DNA from: an uncultured Sulfolobales archaeon
GTDB lineage: Archaea > Thermoproteota > Thermoprotei_A > Sulfolobales > NBVN01
Assembly: GCA_938083005.1 (NCBI GenBank)
Contig: CALKCU010000016.1
Span: 4,285-68,284, forward strand
DNA: 64,000 bases
Direction of reading: 5' to 3'
Shown here one piece after another: positions 7,834-48,002 of the stretch (the first letter of the stretch is position 1; each line of letters opens with the position of its first letter). The translations under genes and the position numbers were made by a program. The notes beneath the pieces are model-generated. The model was given only the letters and a program-made list of their open reading frames with translations. It did not search any database and had not been told where the DNA came from.

Positions 7834-8628
7834 TCACTTGTACTCGCCTAAGGCATTCTCTATCTCGGCTATGAGCTCGTCGAGCCCTACGGCCTCCCGC
7901 GCCGAGACGGGCACCGGGGACTTGATGAACCGTCTGAACAGCTCGCATAGCTGTAGCGAGATCGAGGCGTCGAGGAGGCTCTCGCCGGTGACCAAGGAGG
8001 AACACTCCTCGTACTCCGACAGGAGCCTGTAGATAGGCAACGTTTCGAGGAGCTTCTCGTGGAGCCTCGTCCCGCTGTAGGCCGTCAAGTCTACCACGAG
8101 GTCCACCTTGTTAACCGCTAAGACCATGGGGAGGTTGAGCCTATACATCGCGGAGAGCGCGAGGAGCAGGAGGGAGTACGCTGAGTAGGTCCTCGAGGCG
8201 AGTCTCGCGTCTATCAGGAAGACCATCGCGGCCCTGCTCCCCGAAGAGAGCTCGTGGAGGAGCCGCGGGCCAAGCAGCCTGAACGCCACGACCTCGAGCT
8301 GCCCCGGGAGGTCGGCTAGGGCGTAGTCCGCTCGGCACTCGTCGATCTCCGCTCTGACGTCCTCGACGTAGTTGAGGAGCTCGTCCATGCTGGCCAGCAG
8401 GGCGCCGTTAGGCCCCAGCCCCTTCTTGAACATCAGGTCCCTGGCGTTCACGTACCTCCTAACATCGACGTCGGGCACGTAGGGCAGCAGCTCGGCGGCC
8501 GGGTCAAGGTTGACCTTACACACGAAGTGCTCGAAGCTCTCGAGCCAGAGAGCTAGAGACGACGTGAGCGTAGACTTCCCCGAGCCCGCGGGCCCGGCGA
8601 TGAACACTACGTTCATCCTCGAACCCAC
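7834..8628 (-). CDS. GPN-loop GTPase
   Basis: P-loop FIAGPAGSGKST and a GPNG motif (KKGLGPNGALL). 264 aa. Confidence 0.85.
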   Translation of the reverse strand: MGSRMNVVFIAGPAGSGKSTLTSSLALWLESFEHFVCKVNLDPAAELLPYVPDVDVRRYVNARDLMFKKGLGPNGALLASMDELLNYVEDVRAEIDECRADYALADLPGQLEVVAFRLLGPRLLHELSSGSRAAMVFLIDARLASRTYSAYSLLLLALSAMYRLNLPMVLAVNKVDLVVDLTAYSGTRLHEKLLETLPIYRLLSEYEECSSLVTGESLLDASISLQLCELFRRFIKSPVPVSAREAVGLDELIAEIENALGEYK

Positions 8629-9062
8629 GGCGGTTTCCCGAGGGATCTAATATAGACATGCGATAAGAATCCGGGAGGAGGCGGAGAGGGTCGGTAGCGT
8701 TGAGCTCAACCGACTTTGCGGGCAAGGGTGGTGATCTTGCGAGCGGTAAACCCCTAGCGAGGAGGACGCGAGTATAGCTGAGTCCACCGGTGGACTGTCC
8801 CTCTAGTGGCGTCCCCGGAAGGTGTTCGCGAACTTCTCCTACCCCCAAGGGGGGAGGCGGTGAGAGCTCTGCCCAAGCTCCCGGGGGCGACTAAATGGGG
8901 GTCCAGCCCCGCGGGCTCAGCGACCGCTCATGACACCAGGGAGGCGCACGAAGTGAGTCGACTAATATCCGGGACGAGCGAGAGACCGCGAGGCCTCTCC
9001 GACCTCCAGCAGCCTGTTCTGATGTTAAAAGGAGGAACAGGGTAGATAGTCGTGGTGCGAGC

Positions 9063-9854
9063 TTGAGCGGCAGGATTCCGACCGGGATAGAGCCCCTCGA
9101 TGCGGGCGCTCCTGAGGGGATTCCTCGCGCGTCGACCATACTAATAGCCGGCGAGTCCGGTACCGGGAAATCGGCTCTCATAGCCCACCTGGCGGCTAAC
9201 TTCATGTCCAGGGGCGAGAAGTGCGTCTACGTGGCCCTAGACGACTCTCCGGAATCCTTCGTGGAGCAGCTGGAGAGTTTTGGGTGGCCCGGTCGCGACT
9301 TCCACTCCAGGGATCTGCTCAACATCATAGACGGGTACACCTACACCACCGGCAAGTACCTGAGCTCGGCGTACGCCAAGAAGAGCGTCAACGTGCAGAA
9401 GGTGGACGAGCTGGTGTACTCCCTGCTCAGCTCGGTAGAGGAGCTCAAGCTGGAGGGCACCGGGATCCTCATAGTAGACTCCCTGAACGACCTGCTCTAC
9501 TTCCACGACATTACCAAGATAGTCACGCTGGTGAAGTCTGTCAGGGCCCACGTGTCTAAGCTGAGGAGGGTCCTAGGGGTCATGGTCCTCCACACGGATA
9601 CCGAGGAGAGCGCCGAGCTCGCGAGAAACATAGAGCACCTGTTCGACGGGGTCGTATACACGAGGATAAACGAGGAGCTGAGGAAAATAGGGATACCGCT
9701 CAAGGAGCTCCTAGTCAAGAAGCTGAGGGGGGCCCCGACGAATCCCTTCTGGATACCCTACGCCATAACTAGCTCGGGAATACGCCCTGTGGACGTAGAG
9801 AAACTCGCGAAGCTGATCAAGTCCAGGCTTGAGGAGTACGAGAGGCTCAAATGA
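9063..9854 (+). CDS. KaiC/RecA-superfamily ATPase
   Basis: RIPTGIEPLDAGAPEGIPRASTILIAGESGTGKS is the typical KaiC/RadA-like N-terminus with Walker A. Confidence 0.8.
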   Translation: MSGRIPTGIEPLDAGAPEGIPRASTILIAGESGTGKSALIAHLAANFMSRGEKCVYVALDDSPESFVEQLESFGWPGRDFHSRDLLNIIDGYTYTTGKYLSSAYAKKSVNVQKVDELVYSLLSSVEELKLEGTGILIVDSLNDLLYFHDITKIVTLVKSVRAHVSKLRRVLGVMVLHTDTEESAELARNIEHLFDGVVYTRINEELRKIGIPLKELLVKKLRGAPTNPFWIPYAITSSGIRPVDVEKLAKLIKSRLEEYERLK

Positions 9855-10092
9855 GTTGAGGATAGCGATCAGCGTCTCCAGCAAGTGCGATCTCTGCGGC
9901 CTCTGCGCGGAGTACTGCCCCACCGGGGTTTTTAGGGTCTCGGGCTCCCGCCTGGAGGTAAACGAGAGCGCCTGCATATACTGCAAGGGCTGCGAGGTGT
10001 TGTGCCCCGTCCGAGCGATAAGCGTGCGCGCTCTGGACGAAGGTCTCAGCATTGTGAGGGGGAGGACCCTCGTCTCGGCGAAACCGAGTTAA
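9829..10092 (+). CDS. 2x[4Fe-4S] ferredoxin
   Basis: Two CxxCxxCxxxCP motifs (CDLCGLCAEYCP, CIYCKGCEVLCP). The start may instead be the TTG at 9856. Confidence 0.8.
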   Translation: MRSTRGSNELRIAISVSSKCDLCGLCAEYCPTGVFRVSGSRLEVNESACIYCKGCEVLCPVRAISVRALDEGLSIVRGRTLVSAKPS

Positions 10093-24766: not shown

Positions 24767-25066
24767 TCAGTCGCTGCCTTCTATAGTGAGAGCCGCCCGG
24801 CTATGCCGAGAGACCTCTCCGCCGGCCTCCTCCAGCGCGAGGCCTTCGGCCAGCGCGAGGGCTCTGCGAAGCTTCTCACCTAGCCTCGTCATCCTGTAGG
24901 CCCTGCGGCACCCGTCGGATCCCGCGGGCTCCACGATCCCTAGCTCTTCGAGGACCCGGAGAGCAGCGAGGACCTCGCACTCCGTCATTCCGGCATCCGC
25001 TGCCACATCCTCCGCGGTGAAGAGCCCCGCATTCATGGAGTCCAGCAGTCTCTTGATCCTGCTCAC
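24767..25066 (-). CDS. small winged-helix transcriptional regulator
   Basis: 99 aa. FTAEDVAADAGMTECEVLAALRVLEELGIVE is a wHTH-like segment. Divergent from the pilus-like operon. Confidence 0.6.
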   Translation of the reverse strand: MSRIKRLLDSMNAGLFTAEDVAADAGMTECEVLAALRVLEELGIVEPAGSDGCRRAYRMTRLGEKLRRALALAEGLALEEAGGEVSRHSRAALTIEGSD

Positions 25067-25375
25067 TCCGGGCCCTTAGCGATCCTCGGGAAGACGGTGA
25101 GTTTTAAAGCGGCAGGACCATTAGCCGGAGACCGTTCGTCTCTGGATGCCCGGCGCACTCAGGGACTTCTGCCTCGCCCGCGGATGCTCCGCTACTCCCC
25201 GCACAATCATGAGCAGCCGTAGAACCAGCGGAGCGGTGCTCCCATCGTCCCCGGCCAGGAGTAGGAGAGGCTTTCTTAAGAACGCCGCACCGCTGAAGAA
25301 GCGGCCCATTTCCGGCACACATGCCCCTGGATAGCGCGGACCTCTTTTTAAGGGGAGCTCCTATTGGGAACAGAC

Positions 25376-25822
25376 ATGGCTGTAGAGAGGGGGTTGAGAA
25401 GGGGGGTAAGCGAGCTGGTGATAGTGCTAGCCCTCATAGCGATAATAATCCCCATAGTGATGGTGCTTCAGGGATGGCTCTCTAGCAGAGCGGGAAGCCT
25501 CGAGGGCATCAACGTTATCCAGCCCCTCAGCGGGTATGTGATCAGCAGAACCTACACGGACGGTAGGGAGGTCATTACGATAGGTCTGCGTAACCAGGGT
25601 CAGACCTCGTACGAGGTGAAGGGCTTCAAGGCCGTGCTGGTGAACGGGTCTGTGAGAGACGTAGAGTGGTCCAGCAGCACTGCCGGCACCGTACTAGAGC
25701 CGGGTAGTGAGAGGGTATTCGTCATCACCGTCTCCTCAGGCTCGACTAGGGTCAAGAGCATTGTAGTGACAGCGAGCGAGATTGCCACCGGAAAGCGCGT
25801 CGAGACTTCGATAAACCTGTGA
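25376..25822 (+). CDS. prepilin-like protein with class III (type IV pilin-like) signal peptide
   Basis: MAVERGLRRG|VSELVIVLALIAIIIPIVMVL: a charged n-region, Gly, then a long hydrophobic helix. ATG at 25376 is 27 nt after the TATA box ctttttaagg. The track start is a TTG at 25364. Confidence 0.55.
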   Translation: MAVERGLRRGVSELVIVLALIAIIIPIVMVLQGWLSSRAGSLEGINVIQPLSGYVISRTYTDGREVITIGLRNQGQTSYEVKGFKAVLVNGSVRDVEWSSSTAGTVLEPGSERVFVITVSSGSTRVKSIVVTASEIATGKRVETSINL

Positions 25823-25978
25823 GAGGCCTAGCGCCCCCGAACACAAACCCAGGGGTGTTTTTAGCTGGAGGTCCTCCTCAGCTACAACGTCGGGCTTTCC
25901 TCCATAAGCATAGTCAGAGACCCCTCCGGGAACTACCACTACCTCGTCAGCGACATAGACCCGGAGAAGTACGAGGCC

Positions 25979-28240
25979 GTGGCGAGGCTCGTTAGCAAGG
26001 CCCTGGAGCTCGTAGACCCGAGGAGGAGCGCGGGAGTCTACGACGTCACCAAGGCCGTGCTTGCGTACCTCAAGGGCTACGACCCGGAGCTCGTATCATA
26101 CGTGGTAAGCAGGGAGCTCAAGTACAAGAAGCTCCAAGTCCTCGTCGACGACCCCTACGTGGAGGACGTATCGATAGTCGGCCCGGGACCGGTTTGGGTT
26201 AGGCACAAGTACGTGCTCGAGAGGGATCCCTCGGCTGACTACATCGAGACGAACATCGTGATATCCTCCCACGAGGAGCTGATGAGCTATATGGAGCTCA
26301 TAGCCGAGAGGTCCGGCAGAGTGGTGAATAGGAAGGCCCTCGTCATGGACTTCACACTCCCCGAGGAGGACGGCGGTCACAGAGTCCACCTAGTCCTGCC
26401 CGACGTGGCCCACCCGACCGGGGAGGTGGTCATTAGGAAGAAGGTTCACCACGGCTCTGTAGACCTCGACGTCCTCGTTAAGACCGGGACCGTGCCGGAG
26501 CCTGTGGCTGAGCTGGTAAAGCTCGTTGTCAGGAGGGGCGGGTCCCTGGTAATCCTCGGACCCCCGGGGTCTGGTAAGACCACCTTGCTCAAGGCCATAC
26601 TGTACTCGGTCATCCCCAGGCACTGGAAGATAGCGATAATCGAAGACACTCCCGAGGTGGACGTGCCGAAGGGCGCCAGCTGGGTCAGGTACGCTGTGCC
26701 CGCCAACGTCTGGGGTTCTGATAGGGGGGTGGACCAGATGGCCTTAGCTAAGGCTGCTCTCAGGGCCTCGGTCAGCCGGTTCCTGGTCATCGGCGAGACC
26801 CGGGGCGCCGAGGCGAAGGTGCTGGCCCAGGCTATGAACATGGGGCTGGGCGGTCTATGCCTGCCGAGAGACCAGCTGGTCCTGGCAAGGGTCGACGGGC
26901 GGGTGGACCTCTACGAGATCGGAGAGTTGGTGGACGGAGTGTTGAGGGGCGACTACGGCAGAGTAGAAGTCGTAGCGCCCGGACCAGATCTCGAGCCGAC
27001 GTGGCGACCGATATCCGCGGTGGTCGTGAAGAGGGGGTCCGGCAGGTTCGTGAGGGTCGAGGTCGACGGCGGAGCCGTGCACGAGGTCCACGAAGAGCAC
27101 ATCGTCGTCGTAGCGGGCAGAGGATCGGGTCTAGAATTCAAGAGAGCGAGAGAGCTCGAGCCCGGCGACCTGCTGATAGCGCTCCCCCATCCCCCCAGAT
27201 CGACCAGCGAGAATGCCTTCGTGGAGGTCCCGGTGCTCACCGGAGACCCGGGATCCGGACCCCCCAGCGCGCCCGCTCCGCTAACGAGCCAGGCCATCCA
27301 CCTGAGGCTTAGCAAGAGCCTGGGGTACGTCGTGGGAGCCTACCTGGCGGCGGGCTCCCTCGCGGGGGACCGCTCTGGGGTCCCGGTGGGAGTTCGGTTC
27401 GACGTCAGCGCGGACGCTTTGAGCAAGCTTCTCGCGTCCCTGGAGGGCGTGGGTCTCAAAAGCGCCGAGATCGAGACCGCCAGTGCCCCGCTCGGGGGCT
27501 TTGCCCGTGTGGTCGCGAGGTCCCGGGTCCTGGCCCAGCTACTCGCCCGCATCGCGGGCGAAGACTCCGACGCCAAGCGCGTGCCACTGAATCTAGCCCT
27601 CGAATCGGGTAGGGAGTTCAGAGCGGGCCTGGTGGAGGGATACCTCGAGAGCTCTCGGAGCCCGCGCACGGGGGATGGTATCGGGATGCGCGCGCCGAGC
27701 CGGAAGCTGGCGGAGTCCCTAGCCCTCGTCCTCAAGACCTTCGGTCTGCAGCCCTCGGTTAGGAGCTCTGAGTCGGGCGACTACGAGATCCTCGCCGAGG
27801 AGGGGGAGGTCAGGAGGCTTCTAGCGAGCCCCGAGTGCGGTGGCGGGCCGGTGCTGCTGAGGGTCAGGAGGGTGGAGGTGGTCGAGAAGGAGAGTCTGCT
27901 GTACGACGTCGAGGTCCCGGGAGCTCACCTCTACGCCATTTCGGGCTCCCTGATACTGACTCACAACACGACATTCCACGCGGGCTCGCCCGAGGAGGCT
28001 ATCGTCAGGCTCACCTCGCCCCCGATAGAGCTGGCCCCGCAGCAGCTCGCCATGATCTGGCTCTTCGTCACGCTGGGCTTCCTCGAGGGGGAGGGGTTGA
28101 GGAGGGTCGTCGTCAGGGTCGACGAGCCGGTGCTCAAGTCGAGCACTCTGGTCCTCAACACGATCTACAGATACGGTGAGGAGGTGGACCTGGAGACGCT
28201 TACCAAGAGGTTTACTAGAGCGAGAGACCTATGGGTCTAG
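25979..28240 (+). CDS. PilB/FlaI/VirB11-family secretion ATPase, intein-containing
   Basis: DPYVEDVSIVGPG, Walker A ILGPPGSGKTTLLKA, IIEDTPE, VIGETRG, and AQAMNMGLGGL[intein]TTFHAGS (compare FlaI QAMQTGHSVMATFHA, from memory). A homologous-looking N-terminal extension lies upstream of the GTG start (see findings). Confidence 0.85.
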   Translation: MARLVSKALELVDPRRSAGVYDVTKAVLAYLKGYDPELVSYVVSRELKYKKLQVLVDDPYVEDVSIVGPGPVWVRHKYVLERDPSADYIETNIVISSHEELMSYMELIAERSGRVVNRKALVMDFTLPEEDGGHRVHLVLPDVAHPTGEVVIRKKVHHGSVDLDVLVKTGTVPEPVAELVKLVVRRGGSLVILGPPGSGKTTLLKAILYSVIPRHWKIAIIEDTPEVDVPKGASWVRYAVPANVWGSDRGVDQMALAKAALRASVSRFLVIGETRGAEAKVLAQAMNMGLGGLCLPRDQLVLARVDGRVDLYEIGELVDGVLRGDYGRVEVVAPGPDLEPTWRPISAVVVKRGSGRFVRVEVDGGAVHEVHEEHIVVVAGRGSGLEFKRARELEPGDLLIALPHPPRSTSENAFVEVPVLTGDPGSGPPSAPAPLTSQAIHLRLSKSLGYVVGAYLAAGSLAGDRSGVPVGVRFDVSADALSKLLASLEGVGLKSAEIETASAPLGGFARVVARSRVLAQLLARIAGEDSDAKRVPLNLALESGREFRAGLVEGYLESSRSPRTGDGIGMRAPSRKLAESLALVLKTFGLQPSVRSSESGDYEILAEEGEVRRLLASPECGGGPVLLRVRRVEVVEKESLLYDVEVPGAHLYAISGSLILTHNTTFHAGSPEEAIVRLTSPPIELAPQQLAMIWLFVTLGFLEGEGLRRVVVRVDEPVLKSSTLVLNTIYRYGEEVDLETLTKRFTRARDLWV
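26858..27967 (+). mobile_element. 370-aa intein with LAGLIDADG homing-endonuclease domain
   Basis: Begins with Cys (CLPRDQLVLARVDG) and ends ...LYDVEVPGAHLYAISGSLILTHN, followed by Thr(+1). Two LAGLIDADG-like motifs (LGYVVGAYLAAGS, FRAGLVEGYLESS). Removal restores a contiguous conserved ATPase motif. Confidence 0.85.
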
Positions 28241-29658
28241 CCGATTCCCCCGTTCTCTCGGTGGCTAGGGTCCTGGGAGGGTACCTGGAGCTGCTGAACT
28301 CGGTGAGGATAAGGAGGGGTAAGCCGAGGCTCGAGCCCCGCAAGGGGGCCCTCTACGTGCTGAGGGTCTCTGCCGTACCGACCATAGCTGCTTTATCGGC
28401 TTCGTGCGCGGCACCGCTCCTCCGCAATCCGGGTCTGATCTACTACGCGATCCCCGCGGCGGTCCTCACACTCCTTCTGGCGCCCCTAGCTGCGGAGTAC
28501 CTGCTCTACCTCGGCTACGTGAGGAACTTGGGGGAGGACCTAGCGTACTTCATGATGCTAGAGGGGGTGAGCCCCGGTGACGACCTGCTGAGGGACCTGG
28601 AGGAGGAGTCTAGGTCTCTGTGCTCGTTTCTCCCAGCGTTGTGCAACGAGTGCTCCAGGCTCAGACTGTTCACCAGGTTCTTCCCCGGCGCGAGGGGCGT
28701 CAGAGAGTACGTTTCGAGAGCCCCGAGGCCGATGAGGAAGCTGCTCCTGGAGTACATGGTGGTCCGCGAGAGCGCCGATCTCGGCTCGTGGCTCTACGGC
28801 AAGTTTCGGGAGGTCCTCCGAGAGCTCAAGAACTCCGCGAGAAGCTCGCTGGAGCTCAAGACCCTCCTGAGCCTGGCCGCGGTCGTGTTCAACGGCCTCT
28901 CGCCCCCCCTGATCGCCCTCGCGACGGCACTGAGCAGCGCGGAGACCCCTCACGCCTACCTAATCATAGCAGCGCCCGCTGCTGCCCTGGTCGCGGCGGA
29001 GGGGTTGGCTCCCAGGTTACTGAAGGTGTCCTCCGAGAGTAGGGAGCTCGGGTACCTGGCCCCCCTACTGATGGCGCCTCTCCTCTCGCTCCCTCTGCTT
29101 GGACCCAGGACCTCGGCTACTCTGCTGGGCCTCCTCCTCACCGCTCTGGGAGCAGTCGCGACTGCGAGGTACGCTAAAGCGTACTCGGTCGTCATGTCGC
29201 TGCCGTCCCGGCTAGTCGTCCTGGCGGACAAGATACCCTACTCCAGCAACCCCAAGAGGTTAGTGGAGGAGAGCCTGGCTGACGCGCACGGCCGCGGCGT
29301 CCTCCCCTCCCTCTGCTACCACATGCTCCTGAGGTCCGTAAAGCAGGGGAGCGTGGACACGGTCAGAGTGATCGCGTTTAAAGATATAGTCGAGGAGCTC
29401 TTCTCCCTGGTAAAGCAGGGCACCGCGGTGAGGATCCTGGTCCTGGTCACGGCACTCTCCCAGCCCTTCATCTTCAGCTTCTCGACGTCCCTGGTCGCAG
29501 CGCTGGGGCTGGCGAGCGGGGGGATCGGCATCTACGGCCTCGCGTCGTCCCTCCTCTATAGCTCGGTCGCGACGTTCGCCGTCTTCGGCACCTTCAAGAA
29601 CACACTCCTAGCGGGACTGGTGCTGCTGGAGCTCTGCGCGCTCGGTGTGGCTCCGTGA
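28231..29658 (+). CDS. polytopic membrane protein, FlaJ/TadC/PilC-like platform (tentative)
   Basis: 475 aa with two repeats of a soluble helical segment followed by TM helices. Start overlaps the ATPase stop by 10 nt. Confidence 0.6.
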   Translation: MGLADSPVLSVARVLGGYLELLNSVRIRRGKPRLEPRKGALYVLRVSAVPTIAALSASCAAPLLRNPGLIYYAIPAAVLTLLLAPLAAEYLLYLGYVRNLGEDLAYFMMLEGVSPGDDLLRDLEEESRSLCSFLPALCNECSRLRLFTRFFPGARGVREYVSRAPRPMRKLLLEYMVVRESADLGSWLYGKFREVLRELKNSARSSLELKTLLSLAAVVFNGLSPPLIALATALSSAETPHAYLIIAAPAAALVAAEGLAPRLLKVSSESRELGYLAPLLMAPLLSLPLLGPRTSATLLGLLLTALGAVATARYAKAYSVVMSLPSRLVVLADKIPYSSNPKRLVEESLADAHGRGVLPSLCYHMLLRSVKQGSVDTVRVIAFKDIVEELFSLVKQGTAVRILVLVTALSQPFIFSFSTSLVAALGLASGGIGIYGLASSLLYSSVATFAVFGTFKNTLLAGLVLLELCALGVAP

Positions 29659-31721
29659 TGGTCCCTCTCGTGACCAGGATAGTGAAGCTGGACGAGGTTC
29701 TCGGCAAGCTGGGACCAGTCGATGGCGTGGAGCTGCTCAGGAGCGCGCAGGGCAGACCCGCGCTTAGGGTTGTAAGTGACGGAAGTGCTCGCTTCTACTC
29801 CCTCGATGAGGAGCCCCTGCTGGTGGCGACCATAGGCTCCCCACCGTCGGTCCTGAGCGTAGGCGGGGTCCGCGTTGAGGGCTCCGGTCACGAGGTGTCC
29901 CTCACAGCCGGGGGGAGGGTGTTCCGGGGCAGCGGGCTAGTCGGGGAGTCCGGGACTCTGGCCTACTTCATCGTATGCAGGAGGAGCAGGTGCCGCGCTG
30001 GAGTGGTCGACCTCGTCGACGGGCTCGTCAGGCTCTACGACGTAGATGGCCTGCGCCCCGCGGACCTCCGGGGCTTCGCGGTCAGCGCGGGTGCGGAGGG
30101 CTTCTCCGTAGCCAACAGGTCTTTAACCATCTCCGTGTCCACTAGTGGAGTGGAGCTACTGCCGGGGTTCTTCAGGTTCATCGCGAGCTGCCCGACCGGG
30201 GACTACCTGGTGGACCGGGAGGGGTTCCTAGTGAGGGTCAGGAGAGGAATCATCGATGTCCTCGGTAGAGTGGTAGAGCCTGTCTCGGCGGCATGCCTGA
30301 GCGACGGAGTAGTCGTGGCAGACAGAGAGGGCCTCAAGGTCGTGAGATACGGTGCCTACACCACCGTACTCAAGGAGGCGGTCAGGGAGCTATCCTCGTT
30401 CAGGGACGTGGTCTCCGCCGTGAGTAGGGCGGGAGTGGTCAGAATACTGAGCGGCAAGGACTCCTACGTTCTCGACTCTCCCCTGCTGAGATCGTGCAAG
30501 TCGACTAGGAGGGGGGTCGCCTGCCTCACCGAGGACTCCATCGTCTTCCTGGACCCGGAGGTCCGCATCGAGGTGGAGGTGGACGTCGCTGGCGGCAACG
30601 AGGGAGAGCCGGTAGAGCTGAGGGTCAAGCCATGGTTCGAGAGCTGCCGCCTCTCGATCGCCCCAAAGCTCATCGGGATCCTAGACAGGGTCGTAGACGA
30701 CGGGGCGCTCCGCGCTAGGATATACCCGAGGATCCTGGGGTGGGAGGGCTACGTCAGGGTCACCGTGGAGTGTCCCACCTACTGTCGGAGCGTCGACGAG
30801 TACGTCAAGTTCGGTAGCCTAGAGCTGGGGGAGGTCCTCGAGAAGTACGTCGCCGTGGTCAAGTCGGGGAGGATTCTGGGGAGCGTAGACCACAACTGCC
30901 TCGGCCGAACAACCTTTAGGGTCCTCAGCGGCTTCCCGCTACCCGTCCCCCTCAGAGTGACAGCAACAGGTCTCGAGGGGGCTAGCGTCACGCTCAGCAG
31001 AGACGTGGTAGTCCCCGGGCTCAACGAGGTCTCTGTGAGGCTCACGGGGAAGTGCTCCGGCGACGGCGGAGTGTTCGTAAAGCTGACCAGCGGTCCGGGA
31101 GTTGTCGAGCCCGAGGAGATAGCGACGATCTACATAGACCCCGGGGAGTTCAGGGTCATCGAGTGGAGACCCGACGAGGAGGTCTCGATCTCCAGTGAGG
31201 GCCCCGGGAGCGTGGTAAGAGCGCCGGACTCCTACCTGAGGCTCTACTGCTCGAACGGGAGGACATTCGAGGGGCGTGATAGCATCGCTGTGGAGGACTG
31301 CGAAGAGCCCGCCCTACTCGATGTAGCTAAGGTCTTAAGCGAGGGCGGCGAGGCGTTCGAGCTCAGAGCGGGGAGAGTCCTCAGGGACGCCGTTCGGAGA
31401 TGCCTTAGCGGTTCCGGGAGTGCTAGAGTCGTCGCCGGGGGGTTCTACGCGGACTGCGGCAAATACGAGGTCACCGCCGGCGAGGACCTCCGCTTGAGGA
31501 TGGAGTACGAGAGCGGCTACAGGGTCTCCGTCTACCTCGGCAACGCTAGGGCGCGCGAGCTGAGGCTCAACCCGCTCTACCTGCTGACGGGGTTCTCCGT
31601 CGGCCTGGGCCCGGGCAGAGTGGAAGTGGACTGGAGGAGCGTGTTCAGGCTGGCCCTCTGGACAGCCTTGTCGATAGGGCGTTACGTAGAGGAGCTAGTC
31701 CATGGACGAAGGGACTTATGA
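29655..31721 (+). CDS. hypothetical protein (688 aa), operon member
   Basis: Long ORF coupled to neighbours (4-nt overlap upstream, 20-nt overlap downstream). No recognisable motif, signal peptide or clear TM helix. Confidence 0.7.
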   Translation: MMVPLVTRIVKLDEVLGKLGPVDGVELLRSAQGRPALRVVSDGSARFYSLDEEPLLVATIGSPPSVLSVGGVRVEGSGHEVSLTAGGRVFRGSGLVGESGTLAYFIVCRRSRCRAGVVDLVDGLVRLYDVDGLRPADLRGFAVSAGAEGFSVANRSLTISVSTSGVELLPGFFRFIASCPTGDYLVDREGFLVRVRRGIIDVLGRVVEPVSAACLSDGVVVADREGLKVVRYGAYTTVLKEAVRELSSFRDVVSAVSRAGVVRILSGKDSYVLDSPLLRSCKSTRRGVACLTEDSIVFLDPEVRIEVEVDVAGGNEGEPVELRVKPWFESCRLSIAPKLIGILDRVVDDGALRARIYPRILGWEGYVRVTVECPTYCRSVDEYVKFGSLELGEVLEKYVAVVKSGRILGSVDHNCLGRTTFRVLSGFPLPVPLRVTATGLEGASVTLSRDVVVPGLNEVSVRLTGKCSGDGGVFVKLTSGPGVVEPEEIATIYIDPGEFRVIEWRPDEEVSISSEGPGSVVRAPDSYLRLYCSNGRTFEGRDSIAVEDCEEPALLDVAKVLSEGGEAFELRAGRVLRDAVRRCLSGSGSARVVAGGFYADCGKYEVTAGEDLRLRMEYESGYRVSVYLGNARARELRLNPLYLLTGFSVGLGPGRVEVDWRSVFRLALWTALSIGRYVEELVHGRRDL

Positions 31722-33405
31722 GCTTAGAGACGGGCTCCTGGTGTACAGGGGAGACGCCGAGGTATGTGTCAAGAGAGTGACTAAGGTATCGAACGTGAGC
31801 ACCGCGGTGCAGGACCTCGACGACCACGCCGCGGTGAGGTACGTCAAGGCGTACGCCAACGCCCTCAACCTCGGCTTCCCCCTGGAGTTCTACACTGCGG
31901 TGAGGCCTGTGGACAGGGTGGCGTTCGCAAAGAGTCTCGAAAAGGTCATAACCGAGAGCATGATCGTTTACGAGGTCAATCCGTTCAAGTACGATAGCAA
32001 GATAAGGGCGGCGAGAGCCAGGCAGCTGAGGAACAGAGTCCTCGAGGACTCCGTCCAGCCCTTCGAGGTCGAGGTCTACGTGGCCGTCTCCTCCTGCGCC
32101 GAGGACTTCGAGACCGCTCTGGAGGCTCTGAGGACCAGGCTGAGGGTCCTGAGGAGCACGCTGAGTACCCTGGGGGTGGATCTCGAGGAGGTCGACGCGG
32201 GGAGAGTGATCACCAAGCTGGCCCTAGCCGAGATGCCCCAGCGGAGGCGCGGTCTCCTCCGCAGAGTGGTCGATAGGCTCAAGAGGAAGATAGTCGCGGT
32301 GGACTTAGTCTCGGTACCGGTCTTTACGTTCATCCCCCTGCTGGGGCGAGCGAGGCCCTCCCTGAGGTCCTCGGGGGTAAGGCTGGGGGTGGACCTGGAG
32401 AGTGGAGAGGAGGTCTACTGGAACCCGGACGAGGCTACGTCTCCCCATGTGCTGGTGGTGGGGCCCTCCGGAATAGGCAAGACCACGTTCCTGGCCGAGC
32501 TCTCGCTATCCCTCAGCAGGGCCGGGCTCGGAGTGCTGGTCTTAGACCCGAAGAGCGAGTACGCCAAGCTCCTCGAATCGAAGGGCGGGAGGGCCTTCCG
32601 CTATGTCCTGGGCAGGGACGTCTCGCTGGGGCTCGTCGAGCTGCTGAGGAGAGTGCGCGACGCTCTCGGCAAGGATGTCGCGGAGGTGCTGCTGGACCTC
32701 GTGGCGGTCCACAGAGAGCTCGGTAGAAGAGAGGTCTTTCAGTGCCTCTATACGGCCTTGAGTAGCATCGGTGGGATCCCGGAGAGCGGGGATCTAGAGC
32801 TCGTGGACTCTCTGAAGAGGTTCTCTAGGTACTGCCCCGAGGAGTACTCGGAGTACGCCACCGGCAAGGTGCTCTCGACGCTGGCGGCGGTGTCCGGGGG
32901 GAGGCGGGGGCTGATAAGCCTGCTAGGGGAGCTTGACGGAGTGAACATCGTGGACGTCTCGGTAGCCCTCTCCGTGGACCCCTACGTGCTGCCCATGCTA
33001 CTGAAGGTCCTCTCGATGGCCGTGAGGCTCCTGCCCAGCGGATCCCCGGAGAGGTCTAGGTACCGGAGAATGCTTGTGGTGGACGAGGCCTGGACCGTGC
33101 TCAGGGACAGATCTCTGGAGGTGGTAGAGGAGCTCATAAGGATCGGGAGGAGCTTCGGCACTGTGGTGGCGCTGGCTACGCAGGCGATAAGGGACTTCAC
33201 CGAGGTCCTGGGACCCCTAGTCGACAACCTCGGTCTACTCGTGGTGCTCCCCTCAACGAGCGCCGAGTACTGGGAAGAGGTCAGAAGGATGCTAAGGGCG
33301 AGCGGAGAGCGCGTAGAGAGGATGAGGACCCTCGGGAGGGGCTACGCTCTAGTGAGGATGGCCCCCGATCCCAGGGCTCTCCTAGTTAAGCTAGACCACC
33401 GCTAA
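31702..33405 (+). CDS. VirB4/HerA-superfamily (DUF87-like) ATPase
   Basis: Walker A VLVVGPSGIGKTTFL and Walker B RMLVVDEAWTVL. The DEAW motif is characteristic of VirB4/TrbE/CedB-type ATPases. 567 aa. Confidence 0.7.
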   Translation: MDEGTYELRDGLLVYRGDAEVCVKRVTKVSNVSTAVQDLDDHAAVRYVKAYANALNLGFPLEFYTAVRPVDRVAFAKSLEKVITESMIVYEVNPFKYDSKIRAARARQLRNRVLEDSVQPFEVEVYVAVSSCAEDFETALEALRTRLRVLRSTLSTLGVDLEEVDAGRVITKLALAEMPQRRRGLLRRVVDRLKRKIVAVDLVSVPVFTFIPLLGRARPSLRSSGVRLGVDLESGEEVYWNPDEATSPHVLVVGPSGIGKTTFLAELSLSLSRAGLGVLVLDPKSEYAKLLESKGGRAFRYVLGRDVSLGLVELLRRVRDALGKDVAEVLLDLVAVHRELGRREVFQCLYTALSSIGGIPESGDLELVDSLKRFSRYCPEEYSEYATGKVLSTLAAVSGGRRGLISLLGELDGVNIVDVSVALSVDPYVLPMLLKVLSMAVRLLPSGSPERSRYRRMLVVDEAWTVLRDRSLEVVEELIRIGRSFGTVVALATQAIRDFTEVLGPLVDNLGLLVVLPSTSAEYWEEVRRMLRASGERVERMRTLGRGYALVRMAPDPRALLVKLDHR

Positions 33406-33520: not shown

Positions 33521-33594
33521 GCCGGGGTAGCTCAGCAAGGTAGAGCGCCGGGCTGTTAACCCGGTGGTCGGAGGTTCGAGTCCTCCCCCCGGCG
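33521..33594 (+). tRNA. tRNA-Asn (anticodon GTT)
   Basis: Acceptor GCCGGGG/CCCCGGC, anticodon arm CCGGG-CTGTTAA-CCCGG, T arm GGAGG-TTCGAGT-CCTCC. CCA is encoded at 33595-33597. TATA box aaggttataagg lies about 28 nt upstream. Confidence 0.9.
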
Positions 33595-33767: not shown

Positions 33768-33947
33768 TTAAGCCGGGTAGTCCTCGGGAACCTTGGCCCT
33801 GAAGTACTTCCCGCTAGGGCTCTTGAACAGACCTATCTTGACTCCCTTCCTACCCTTGGGAGCTAGGGTCCAGACCTTCTCCGGTACCAGCTCTAGCTCC
33901 TGCCCTGTGTGCGGGTCCTTCACCTTAACAGGGGGCTTCTTGCTCAT
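33768..33947 (-). CDS. cren7: chromatin protein Cren7
   Basis: 59-aa ORF below the track cutoff. Hand translation [59 protein letters not shown] is nearly colinear with Sulfolobus Cren7 (from memory). An AT-rich promoter region lies upstream. Confidence 0.9.
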
Positions 33948-47550: not shown

Positions 47551-47912
47551 ACACTGCGCGATAGCCCTCAAAAGCCAGACCTCTTTGAGCTCTGCTCTCG
47601 TGGCGGCGGAGCATTTAAGTCCCGTCGCCCTTCACCATGCTCGCCTAAGTTCTCCGCGAAACCTTACGTCTCTTCTCTCCGAGCCGGCTCTCCCGGGTGA
47701 GCGCAGACAGGTTAAGGCCTCCGAATTCGCTCGGCCCCCGCCAAGTTCGCGAGAAGGTCTGCTCCCCGAATAAGCCGCTCACCAAGCCGTCTCCAGGCAC
47801 GAGAGCGCGAGTGGTCTCCAAGATCTCTACCACCAAGGAGGCACGTCCCATCTAGTCCCCTTCCACTGCAGCCGAGAAATCTTTATCCGCACTTTAAGGG
47901 CGCGCTCAAGAG

Positions 47913-48002
47913 TGGGCCCGCGGGGATTCGAACCCCGGACCGCCCGGTGTCCCATGGCGATCAATATGAGCCGGGCGCTCTGCCTGGCTGAGCTACGGGC
48001 CC
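47913..48002 (-). tRNA. tRNA with CAT anticodon (elongator Met or Ile2) with 16-nt canonical intron
   Basis: Minus strand: GGGCCCG TA GCTC AGCCAGGCA GAGC G CCCGG CTCATA [ttgatcgccatgggac] A CCGGG CGGTC CGGGG TTCGAAT CCCCG CGGGCCC A. Intron at 47949-47964 (plus coordinates) forms a bulge-helix-bulge (CUCA:UGGG). Not initiator-like. Confidence 0.9.

Follow-up and report, generated by a model that had tools for sequence, protein, structure and literature searches.

The 64,000-nucleotide stretch of contig CALKCU010000016.1 from an uncultured archaeon (hereafter the window) carries an operon in which genes that appear related to those of the Ups pilus are joined to a gene for a CedB-type ATPase. 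The map of open reading frames (ORFs) of the 64-kb window contained five consecutive ORFs on the plus strand, encoding a prepilin-like protein, a filament ATPase interrupted by an intein, a polytopic membrane protein of 475 amino acids (aa), a 688-aa protein and a second ATPase, as well as a divergent gene for a 99-aa winged helix-turn-helix (wHTH) protein. All six genes, the quoted motifs and the overlaps given in an initial annotation of this DNA were recovered at the coordinates reported there. The last four genes of the operon are translationally coupled, overlapping by 10 nucleotides (nt) (28231-28240), 4 nt (29655-29658) and 20 nt (31702-31721). That Ups and Ced cooperate in DNA exchange was already known; what is new is the presence of Ups-type and Ced-type genes as one translationally coupled operon, and its occurrence in lineages of the Desulfurococcales grade.

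Gene products of the operon

The last gene of the operon (31702-33405, plus strand) encodes a 567-aa VirB4/HerA-like ATPase with the motifs GPSGIGKTT and VVDEAW. The NCBIfam CedB model matched this protein with an expectation value (E) of 1.2e-50, residues 23-565 being aligned to positions 74-587 of the 590 in the profile, the N-terminal domain included. In phmmer searches canonical CedB found the window's protein at 3.9e-39, whereas CedD reached its orthologues only at approximately 1e-3 to 1e-4. Judged by these matches, the last ATPase belongs to the CedB family and is clearly closer to CedB than to CedD, in agreement with the relationship suggested by the initial annotation. The match starts only at position 74 of the profile, which shows that the membrane anchor of the Sulfolobus CedB is missing. 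The Walker A motif (G254 to K260) and the residues D461, E462 and W464 were invariant in 16 CedB-like homologues. CedB is required for DNA import, and roughly one in two CedB/CedD/VirB4 proteins has no transmembrane helices (PMC11823120, PMC11868833).

The locus L048, a Sulfolobaceae-like contig (1-12781), was used as the reference for the remaining products. It carries upsA, canonical cedB, upsX-upsE-upsF and cedD within 12.8 kb; the NCBIfam models for UpsA (160 bits), CedB (746 bits) and UpsF (435 bits) were each matched above the cut-off, and a UpsE-like ATPase, UpsX (519 bits) and CedD (510 bits) were also encoded there. Ups and Ced genes are physically linked a second time, and independently, in L048, whose clustering of cedB, ups and cedD supports an ancestral connection between the two systems. 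Hidden Markov models (HMMs) of the operon's families were built without L048 and run against 4,458 six-frame ORFs to find the best matches outside each family.

The second gene of the operon (25865-28240, plus strand) encodes the UpsE-like type IV filament assembly ATPase, 421 aa long after splicing. The motifs GPPGSGKTT, IIEDTPE, GETRG (in VIGETRG) and TTFHAG were all present in the window, so that the protein has the Walker A motif, the Asp box, the Walker B motif and the His box of the secretion-superfamily ATPases, and it matched Pfam T2SSE at 1.4e-13. Among the solved structures the spliced sequence was closest to FlaI (4ii7, 1.4e-33), followed by archaeal GspE (2e-27), CpaF (7e-19) and VirB11 (1e-11). 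With the UpsE of L048 it aligned end to end, residues 5-397 against 1-383, at 7e-46 and 31% identity. On this similarity, it is an archaeal type IV filament ATPase that groups with FlaI and UpsE and not with VirB11. The family named in the initial annotation (PilB/FlaI/VirB11) was therefore right as to a filament ATPase, and the FlaI match bears this out; the upstream start and the 370-aa intein had been missed. VirB11 as the identity of this protein was rejected, being a far poorer match than FlaI or UpsE.

The ORF tool delimited the intein-interrupted gene as 753 aa from a GTG at 25979 to 28240; the frame is open from 25865, 38 codons further upstream. The codon at 25865 is a TTG start in eight orthologues, preceded by GGTGTTTTT, and a CTG in the window, and the 38 extra residues align to the N-terminus of UpsE. 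The gene most likely begins at 25865, where the CTG may initiate translation; alternatively, GTG 25979 may be used instead or the CTG may be a sequencing error. The GGTGTTTTT tract that follows the pilin gene in the window (25835-25867) resembles a Shine-Dalgarno site followed by a T-run, and this T-run could act in the attenuation of transcription after the pilin gene.

The 370-aa insert in the His-box region of this ATPase (26858-27967, plus strand) is, by its sequence hallmarks, an intein with a LAGLIDADG-type endonuclease domain, and its splicing is predicted. It begins with Cys1, ends with His-Asn and is followed by Thr+1, the junctions reading GLGGL/C...THN/TTFHAG. The intein-free orthologues in L014 and L055, as well as the genuine UpsE, read GLGGL/TTFH at this place, so that the 370-aa gap is exact. 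Pfam Intein_splicing matched at 1e-4, and NCBIfam gave matches to the intein-bearing models of RNA polymerase A'' and RFC. The insert is confined to the window's clade, in which the ATPases are 826-877 aa long, as against 434-459 aa elsewhere. An acidic residue is missing from the first LAGLIDADG-like motif, LGYVVGAYLAAGSL, and the endonuclease may therefore have degenerated. The insert adds one more case of an intein within a secretion-superfamily ATPase.

The 688-aa product (29655-31721, plus strand), called UpsX-like in the following, gave no direct match in Pfam, NCBIfam, PHROGs or PDB, and it had been described as an orphan. Its family is no true orphan and appears, at the level of profiles and HMMs, remotely related to UpsX. 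Three distant natural members matched NCBIfam UpsX collinearly (6e-6, 2e-5 and 1e-3), the consensus sequences of the family did so at 1.8e-11 and 6.8e-11, and besides UpsX no family was matched by more than one member. The best match of the family HMM outside the family was the genuine UpsX, with 23.7 bits against 6.4 bits for the next, and the comparison of the family with UpsX by hhalign gave P = 0.0037 over approximately 500 collinear columns, including the C-terminal helix. Phmmer searches with genuine UpsX or UpsF found no protein of the operon. Genuine UpsX, like genuine UpsF, has no Pfam match.

The structure of the UpsX-like protein was modelled by AlphaFold2 with a mean predicted local distance difference test score (pLDDT) of 82.3. 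In this all-beta model the N-terminal half is propeller-like; several Ig-like sandwiches and, at the C-terminus, an amphipathic helix (660-683) are also present. The matches retrieved for it by Foldseek were all generic, combining a beta-propeller with Ig or PKD domains. No member of the family contained a signal peptide or a transmembrane segment, and the protein is predicted to be cytoplasmic. These predictions of structure and location agree with the published properties of UpsX, which is cytoplasmic, has no recognisable domains, is dispensable for pili and aggregation, promotes DNA exchange and is partly recruited to the membrane upon ultraviolet (UV) irradiation (PMC3892339).

The 13 close homologues of the UpsX-like protein have twelve invariant cysteines in common; four of these, C281, C290, C532 and C549, do not vary anywhere in the family, and C179 and C214 hardly do. 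Such a pattern points to disulfides or to a metal site within a predicted cytoplasmic protein of a hyperthermophile. In L013, a contig of 1.2 Mb, the UpsX-like gene (7928-9989) appears in the gene calls as two ORFs (388 and 315 aa), the gene being intact in the close relative L017; the split could stem from a frameshift, from decay to a pseudogene or from faulty assembly.

The 475-aa membrane protein (28231-29658, plus strand) has approximately nine hydrophobic segments and two soluble helical regions (about 95-210 and 313-398). The window's protein itself gave no direct match in Pfam, NCBIfam, PHROGs, PDB or Foldseek. The T2SSF, FlaJ and TadC models did not match it, Pfam T2SSF matched none of the 13 members of its family nor their consensus, and its structural model (pLDDT 68) retrieved nothing below E = 0.1 in Foldseek. 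The consensus of the family HMM matched NCBIfam UpsF at 1.2e-12, positions 45-477 against 31-463 of 484, and no other platform model. With the family HMM, the best match outside the family was the genuine UpsF (15.9 bits), collinear over 58-480 against 60-477. The lack of a T2SSF match is no evidence against a platform role, because genuine UpsF likewise has no Pfam match. Of the FlaJ/TadC-like protein in the initial annotation there remained a putative platform, probably a remote UpsF homologue visible by profile or consensus only. Comparison of its N-terminal and C-terminal halves by hhalign gave no significant sign of an internal duplication, comparisons with single UpsF and UpsA sequences by the same program were weak or null, and no similarity to VirB6 was found.

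The first gene (25364-25822, plus strand), starting with TTG 25364 or ATG 25376, encodes the prepilin-like protein. The motif quoted in the initial annotation, RRG followed by VSELVIVLALIAIII, was present; the class III-type signal RRG/VSELV is followed by approximately 20 hydrophobic residues and a beta-sandwich domain, and this N-terminus was strongly conserved in nine orthologues. We infer that the signal is cleaved after RRG by a peptidase of the PibD/FlaK type; no prepilin peptidase gene was identified within the window. Scans of the window's prepilin-like protein against Pfam, NCBIfam and PHROGs yielded nothing useful, and profile searches of PDB sequences with this family, as with the families of the membrane and UpsX-like proteins, returned noise only. 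The similarity to known pilins was weak: ArlF was matched at 0.007 by the window's protein and at 0.004 by the family consensus, UpsA at 0.0056 by the L056 orthologue and UpsB at 0.07 by the L055 orthologue, and Ig-like Pfam domains at approximately 0.002 by the consensus. The best match of the family HMM outside the family was the genuine UpsA with 12.4 bits, the next one reaching 8.5 bits, so the pilin may weakly resemble UpsA. An N-x-S/T sequon (NGS or NGT) at about residues 88-92 was found in seven of the nine orthologues; such conservation would be in keeping with a glycosylated subunit outside the cell.

Homologues of UpsE, UpsF and UpsX are encoded together with a pilin in this operon. 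For the UpsF-like and UpsX-like products, the Ups proteins of Sulfolobales were the only meaningful matches, and four of the five products best matched UpsE, UpsF, UpsX and CedB. The initial annotation had found no described system to match the operon, a view that did not hold. The hybrid apparatus suggested there was supported in substance as a type IV pilus with a Ced-type motor, and its parts turned out to be matchable, as relatives of Ups and Ced. Five gene families that had been annotated as hypothetical, DUF87 or HerA-like are now assigned.

Distribution, control region and genomic context

The set of loci was assembled by a metagenome scan with an alignment of CedB-like proteins, contig look-ups and a neighbourhood analysis with the family HMMs. 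The order pilin, UpsE-like, UpsF-like, UpsX-like, CedB-like was found in 25 of 25 distinct loci with enough upstream DNA, and the reading frames were contiguous or overlapping in all these full loci. In 14 further, truncated loci the UpsX-like gene lay directly upstream of the CedB-like gene. The order was kept even as the identity of the CedB-like protein to that of the window dropped to approximately 30%. The neighbourhood comparison, recommended in the initial annotation as a way to recognise an already catalogued locus type, thus yielded one constant arrangement, which was not found in the literature searched.

Close homologues are rare. Among 5.8 billion proteins only 13 were found for the UpsX-like protein and 15 for the membrane protein, six species in GTDB contained close homologues of the two, and an exhaustive profile search of 1.84 billion representatives returned 16 clusters for them. 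The sources were all metagenome-assembled genomes labelled Sulfolobales, Desulfurococcales, Desulfurococcaceae or Thermoprotei archaeon. Hot-spring and vent metagenomes yielded remote homologues of the Ups type at no fewer than about 40 distinct loci.

A variant of low GC content was observed in L052 (6602-11107), and also in L053 and L054. It contains a wHTH gene of the SSO5209 type and a CedB-like gene split into ORFs of 191 and 380 aa, and it is devoid of genes for the pilin, the pilus ATPase and the platform, in place of which an 813-aa protein is encoded. This protein, as found in L052, ends with an amphipathic helix and has no detectable similarity to the UpsX-like family.

The wHTH gene of the window (24767-25066, minus strand) is divergent from the operon. 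Its 99-aa product was matched by NCBIfam SSO5209_fam at 5.2e-11, and the L055 orthologue at 3e-22; a literature search on SSO5209 retrieved no paper. The gene adjoins the operon in most loci, and in L013, L017 and L022 it lies upstream on the same strand. The control region shared by the two transcription units (25067-25363), as read from its sequence, contains two TATA-like boxes: TTTTAAA at 25102-25108 points to the wHTH gene and CTTTTTAAGG at 25344-25353 to the pilin gene. Both were found at matching relative positions in ten orthologous intergenic regions, the spacers of which varied from 54 to 543 nt, and they are putative promoters.

The operon is flanked by housekeeping genes, encoding ABCE1, L13e, Cren7, AspRS and Lhr, the first four of which are also its neighbours in related genomes. 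No integrase gene was found in the window, and neither was an att-like repeat or a direct repeat of the tRNA end. The GC content of the operon (0.61-0.65) is like that of its surroundings (0.58-0.64 elsewhere in the window). With fixed housekeeping neighbours, no integrase or att-like repeat and such a GC content, the operon is, by these sequence criteria, resident and not recently inserted, and the residency claimed from GC content in the initial annotation was borne out by the context as well.

Just 3' of the operon lies the Cren7 chromatin-protein gene (33768-33947, minus strand), as it does in almost every related locus. Between the two, a tRNA-Asn gene confirmed by Rfam (33521-33594, plus strand) begins 116 nt downstream of the operon. 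ARAGORN also called a 100-nt tRNA-Val (30321-30420) inside the UpsX-like coding region, probably a false positive because Rfam gives no support for it, and a 91-nt "tRNA-Asn (att)" on the minus strand (47912-48002), beside a tRNA-Ala.

A proposed apparatus for contact and DNA exchange and its rivals

The reading we favour, somewhat more than even in our estimate, is that of a resident, vertically inherited operon for an Ups-like pilus machine with a CedB-type ATPase, serving pilus-mediated contact and the exchange or uptake of chromosomal DNA. From the gene content and homologies we infer that a filament is formed, that the UpsX-like protein acts as an adaptor and that DNA is the substrate, as well as in which direction it is transported and how the genes are regulated. 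A prepilin peptidase encoded elsewhere would cut the prepilin after RRG. The UpsE-like ATPase, presumably active only once its intein has been spliced out, would polymerise the pilin, together with the UpsF-like platform, into a surface filament contacting other cells. The UpsX-like protein could dock on the membrane complex, perhaps via its C-terminal amphipathic helix, and recruit a soluble, anchor-less hexamer of the CedB-like ATPase, linking the pilus platform to the motor that would power DNA movement across the membrane. Both divergent promoters may be under the control of the wHTH protein of the SSO5209 family. In this proposal, coupling the pilus machine with the CedB-type motor is probably the task of the UpsX-like protein, and the coordination of an Ups pilus with a Ced translocon would here be built into one unit of transcription and translation. 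As the UpsX-like gene invariably lies just before the CedB-type gene and overlaps it, an interaction between UpsX and CedB is predicted. All that has been known of UpsX since 2013 is that it is cytoplasmic and promotes DNA transfer, and the predicted interaction is testable in Sulfolobus.

Several observations weigh against this proposal. The CedB-like ATPase scored 172.7 bits with a NCBIfam cut-off of 700, which makes it a member of the family and not a proven orthologue, and the equivalog cut-offs of the Ups models were likewise not reached (UpsF 47 vs. 400 bits, UpsX 43 vs. 550 bits, UpsA at most 17 vs. 130 bits). The kinship with UpsF and UpsX was visible only at the level of profiles or consensus sequences, the margin of the UpsF match over noise in the HMM test was small (15.9 vs. 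13.4 and 11.4 bits), and the pilin consensus scored slightly better on ArlF than on UpsA. The gene order of the operon (pilin-E-F-X) differs from that in Sulfolobales (upsX-E-F-A-B), and the window's ATPase gene has a CTG where its orthologues start with TTG. By inspection, the conserved UV-promoter motif A(N)TTTC was not seen in 11 orthologous upstream regions, a comparison limited by the shortness of the motif and by its unestablished conservation beyond Sulfolobus. All carriers of the operon are uncultured. A search confined to the 64-kb window, and made with the existence of NCBIfam models for CedA or CedA1 unconfirmed, detected no CedA (the VirB6-like channel), CedA1 (the VirB2-like pilin) or CedD, either in the operon or among the window's membrane proteins. 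The other membrane proteins of the window were subunits of transporters or had no match, and the DNA conduit is thus unaccounted for.

A bolder hypothesis, which we hold only tentatively and consider rather doubtful, takes Ups and Ced for the halves of one ancestral machine. The operon's type IV pilus core, UpsX-type adaptor and CedB-type motor would then still function together as a single competence-like apparatus for DNA import or exchange, without a conduit of the VirB6/VirB2 (CedA/CedA1) type and with UpsX as the coupler. If it were true, UpsX as the coupler of platform and translocase would explain the role of this protein in Sulfolobus.

An ordinary pilus for adhesion or aggregation, with the CedB-like and UpsX-like proteins providing a second motor for filament biogenesis or retraction and no DNA being moved, seems unlikely to us. 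In bacterial type IV secretion the assembly of the pilus is driven by VirB4, and to our knowledge Archaea have no PilT. The operon does appear to contain the complete core of a pilus (pilin, ATPase and platform) with no gene for CedA, CedA1, CedD or DNA processing in it or in the window, and according to the published view CedB may also energise the assembly of the Ced apparatus (PMC11823120). However, CedB, the sole characterised member of its family, is needed for DNA import, UpsX affects DNA transfer yet is dispensable for pili and aggregation, and the CedB-like and wHTH genes persist without pilus genes in L052-L054. The constancy of the operon also bears on the suggestion that the pilus and CedB-like genes are functionally unrelated and co-transcribed through a historical arrangement only. 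Overlaps at the last three junctions and an invariant order were kept across lineages that have diverged to 30-40% identity, which is not expected without selection for co-expression, and ups and ced genes cluster independently in L048; we give this suggestion little credence.

Hardly any weight was left to the notion that the unit is a transfer module, with VirB11-like and VirB4-like ATPases, which belongs to a plasmid or to an integrated conjugative element and was inserted beside the tRNA-Asn gene. The tRNA gene 116 nt downstream would suit such an element, as would the weak matches of the two ATPases to VirB11/TrbB and to proteins of the VirB4/TraC/TrwB type. The position of the operon among housekeeping genes is nevertheless constant in all related genomes, no integrase, repeat of the tRNA end or shift in GC content was seen, the first ATPase is much nearer to FlaI and UpsE than to VirB11, and no candidates for VirB6, VirB2, VirD4 or a relaxase were found. 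With att repeats absent and the context fixed, the reading as a mobile element was rejected.

Relation to known systems

The bacterial type IV secretion systems with VirB11 and VirB4 likewise combine a secretion-superfamily ATPase and a VirB4/HerA-type ATPase in one operon. The first ATPase of the present operon goes with FlaI and UpsE (1e-33 to 1e-46) rather than with VirB11 (1e-11), and the other components of these systems are not present. The pairing of a filament with a separate DNA-moving ATPase recalls, as an analogy only, bacterial competence, in which a Com pseudopilus or type IV pilus works with a cytoplasmic DNA translocase; no homologues of ComEC or ComEA were found here, and the putative translocase is of the CedB/VirB4/HerA type. 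In the transjugation of Thermus, uptake by a type IV pilus is paired with HerA-like export ATPases (PMC11868833).

The Ted system of Thermoproteales (TedA, TedB, TedC and TedD) is comparable to the operon: it is a domesticated apparatus for DNA transfer, encoded on the chromosome of a hyperthermophilic crenarchaeon, and its ATPase is of the VirB4 type (PMC9905601). A type IV filament ATPase and a platform are missing from Ted, which uses a VirB2-like pilin with a VirB6-like channel, whereas the filament genes of the operon are of the type IV pilus kind. With the Ced system (CedA, CedA1, CedA2, CedB, CedD and CedE) the operon shares the CedB-family ATPase, similar over nearly its whole length and with invariant Walker motifs. 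It differs in that CedA, CedA1 and CedD are absent from the operon and window, in that the ATPase has no N-terminal membrane segment like that of the Sulfolobus CedB, and in that this ATPase is translationally coupled to pilus genes, an arrangement that was not found described for any Ced locus. In Sulfolobales, Ups pili gather the cells and Ced imports the DNA, their genes being dispersed and co-regulated (PMC11823120, PMC11868833). A CedB has been reported from cultured members of the Desulfurococcales as well.

The Ups system (UpsX, UpsE, UpsF, UpsA and UpsB), a UV-inducible type IV pilus, has been described from Sulfolobales only, and the hosts of the operon are uncultured Thermoprotei of the Desulfurococcales grade. 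The Ced papers of 2023-2025 state that the Ups genes are absent from other Crenarchaea (PMC9905601, PMC11823120, PMC11868833). The 2016 census of archaeal type IV pili and a 2026 preprint on the classification of type IV filaments (TFF) place Ups in Sulfolobales only, and both mention no VirB4, HerA or CedB partner. In place of the two pilin genes of Ups the operon has one; its ATPase is interrupted by an intein, its 3' end carries a CedB-like gene, inspection revealed no A(N)TTTC motif, and the similarity is remote, with 31% identity for the ATPase and detection at the profile level only for UpsF and UpsX. The literature searched denies Ups-type pili outside Sulfolobales; the homologues found here are remote yet specific. 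Resemblances to Ups are the end-to-end alignment of the ATPase with UpsE, the matches of the putative platform and of the large, predicted cytoplasmic accessory protein to no family other than UpsF and UpsX, respectively, and a class III-type signal on the prepilin-like protein.

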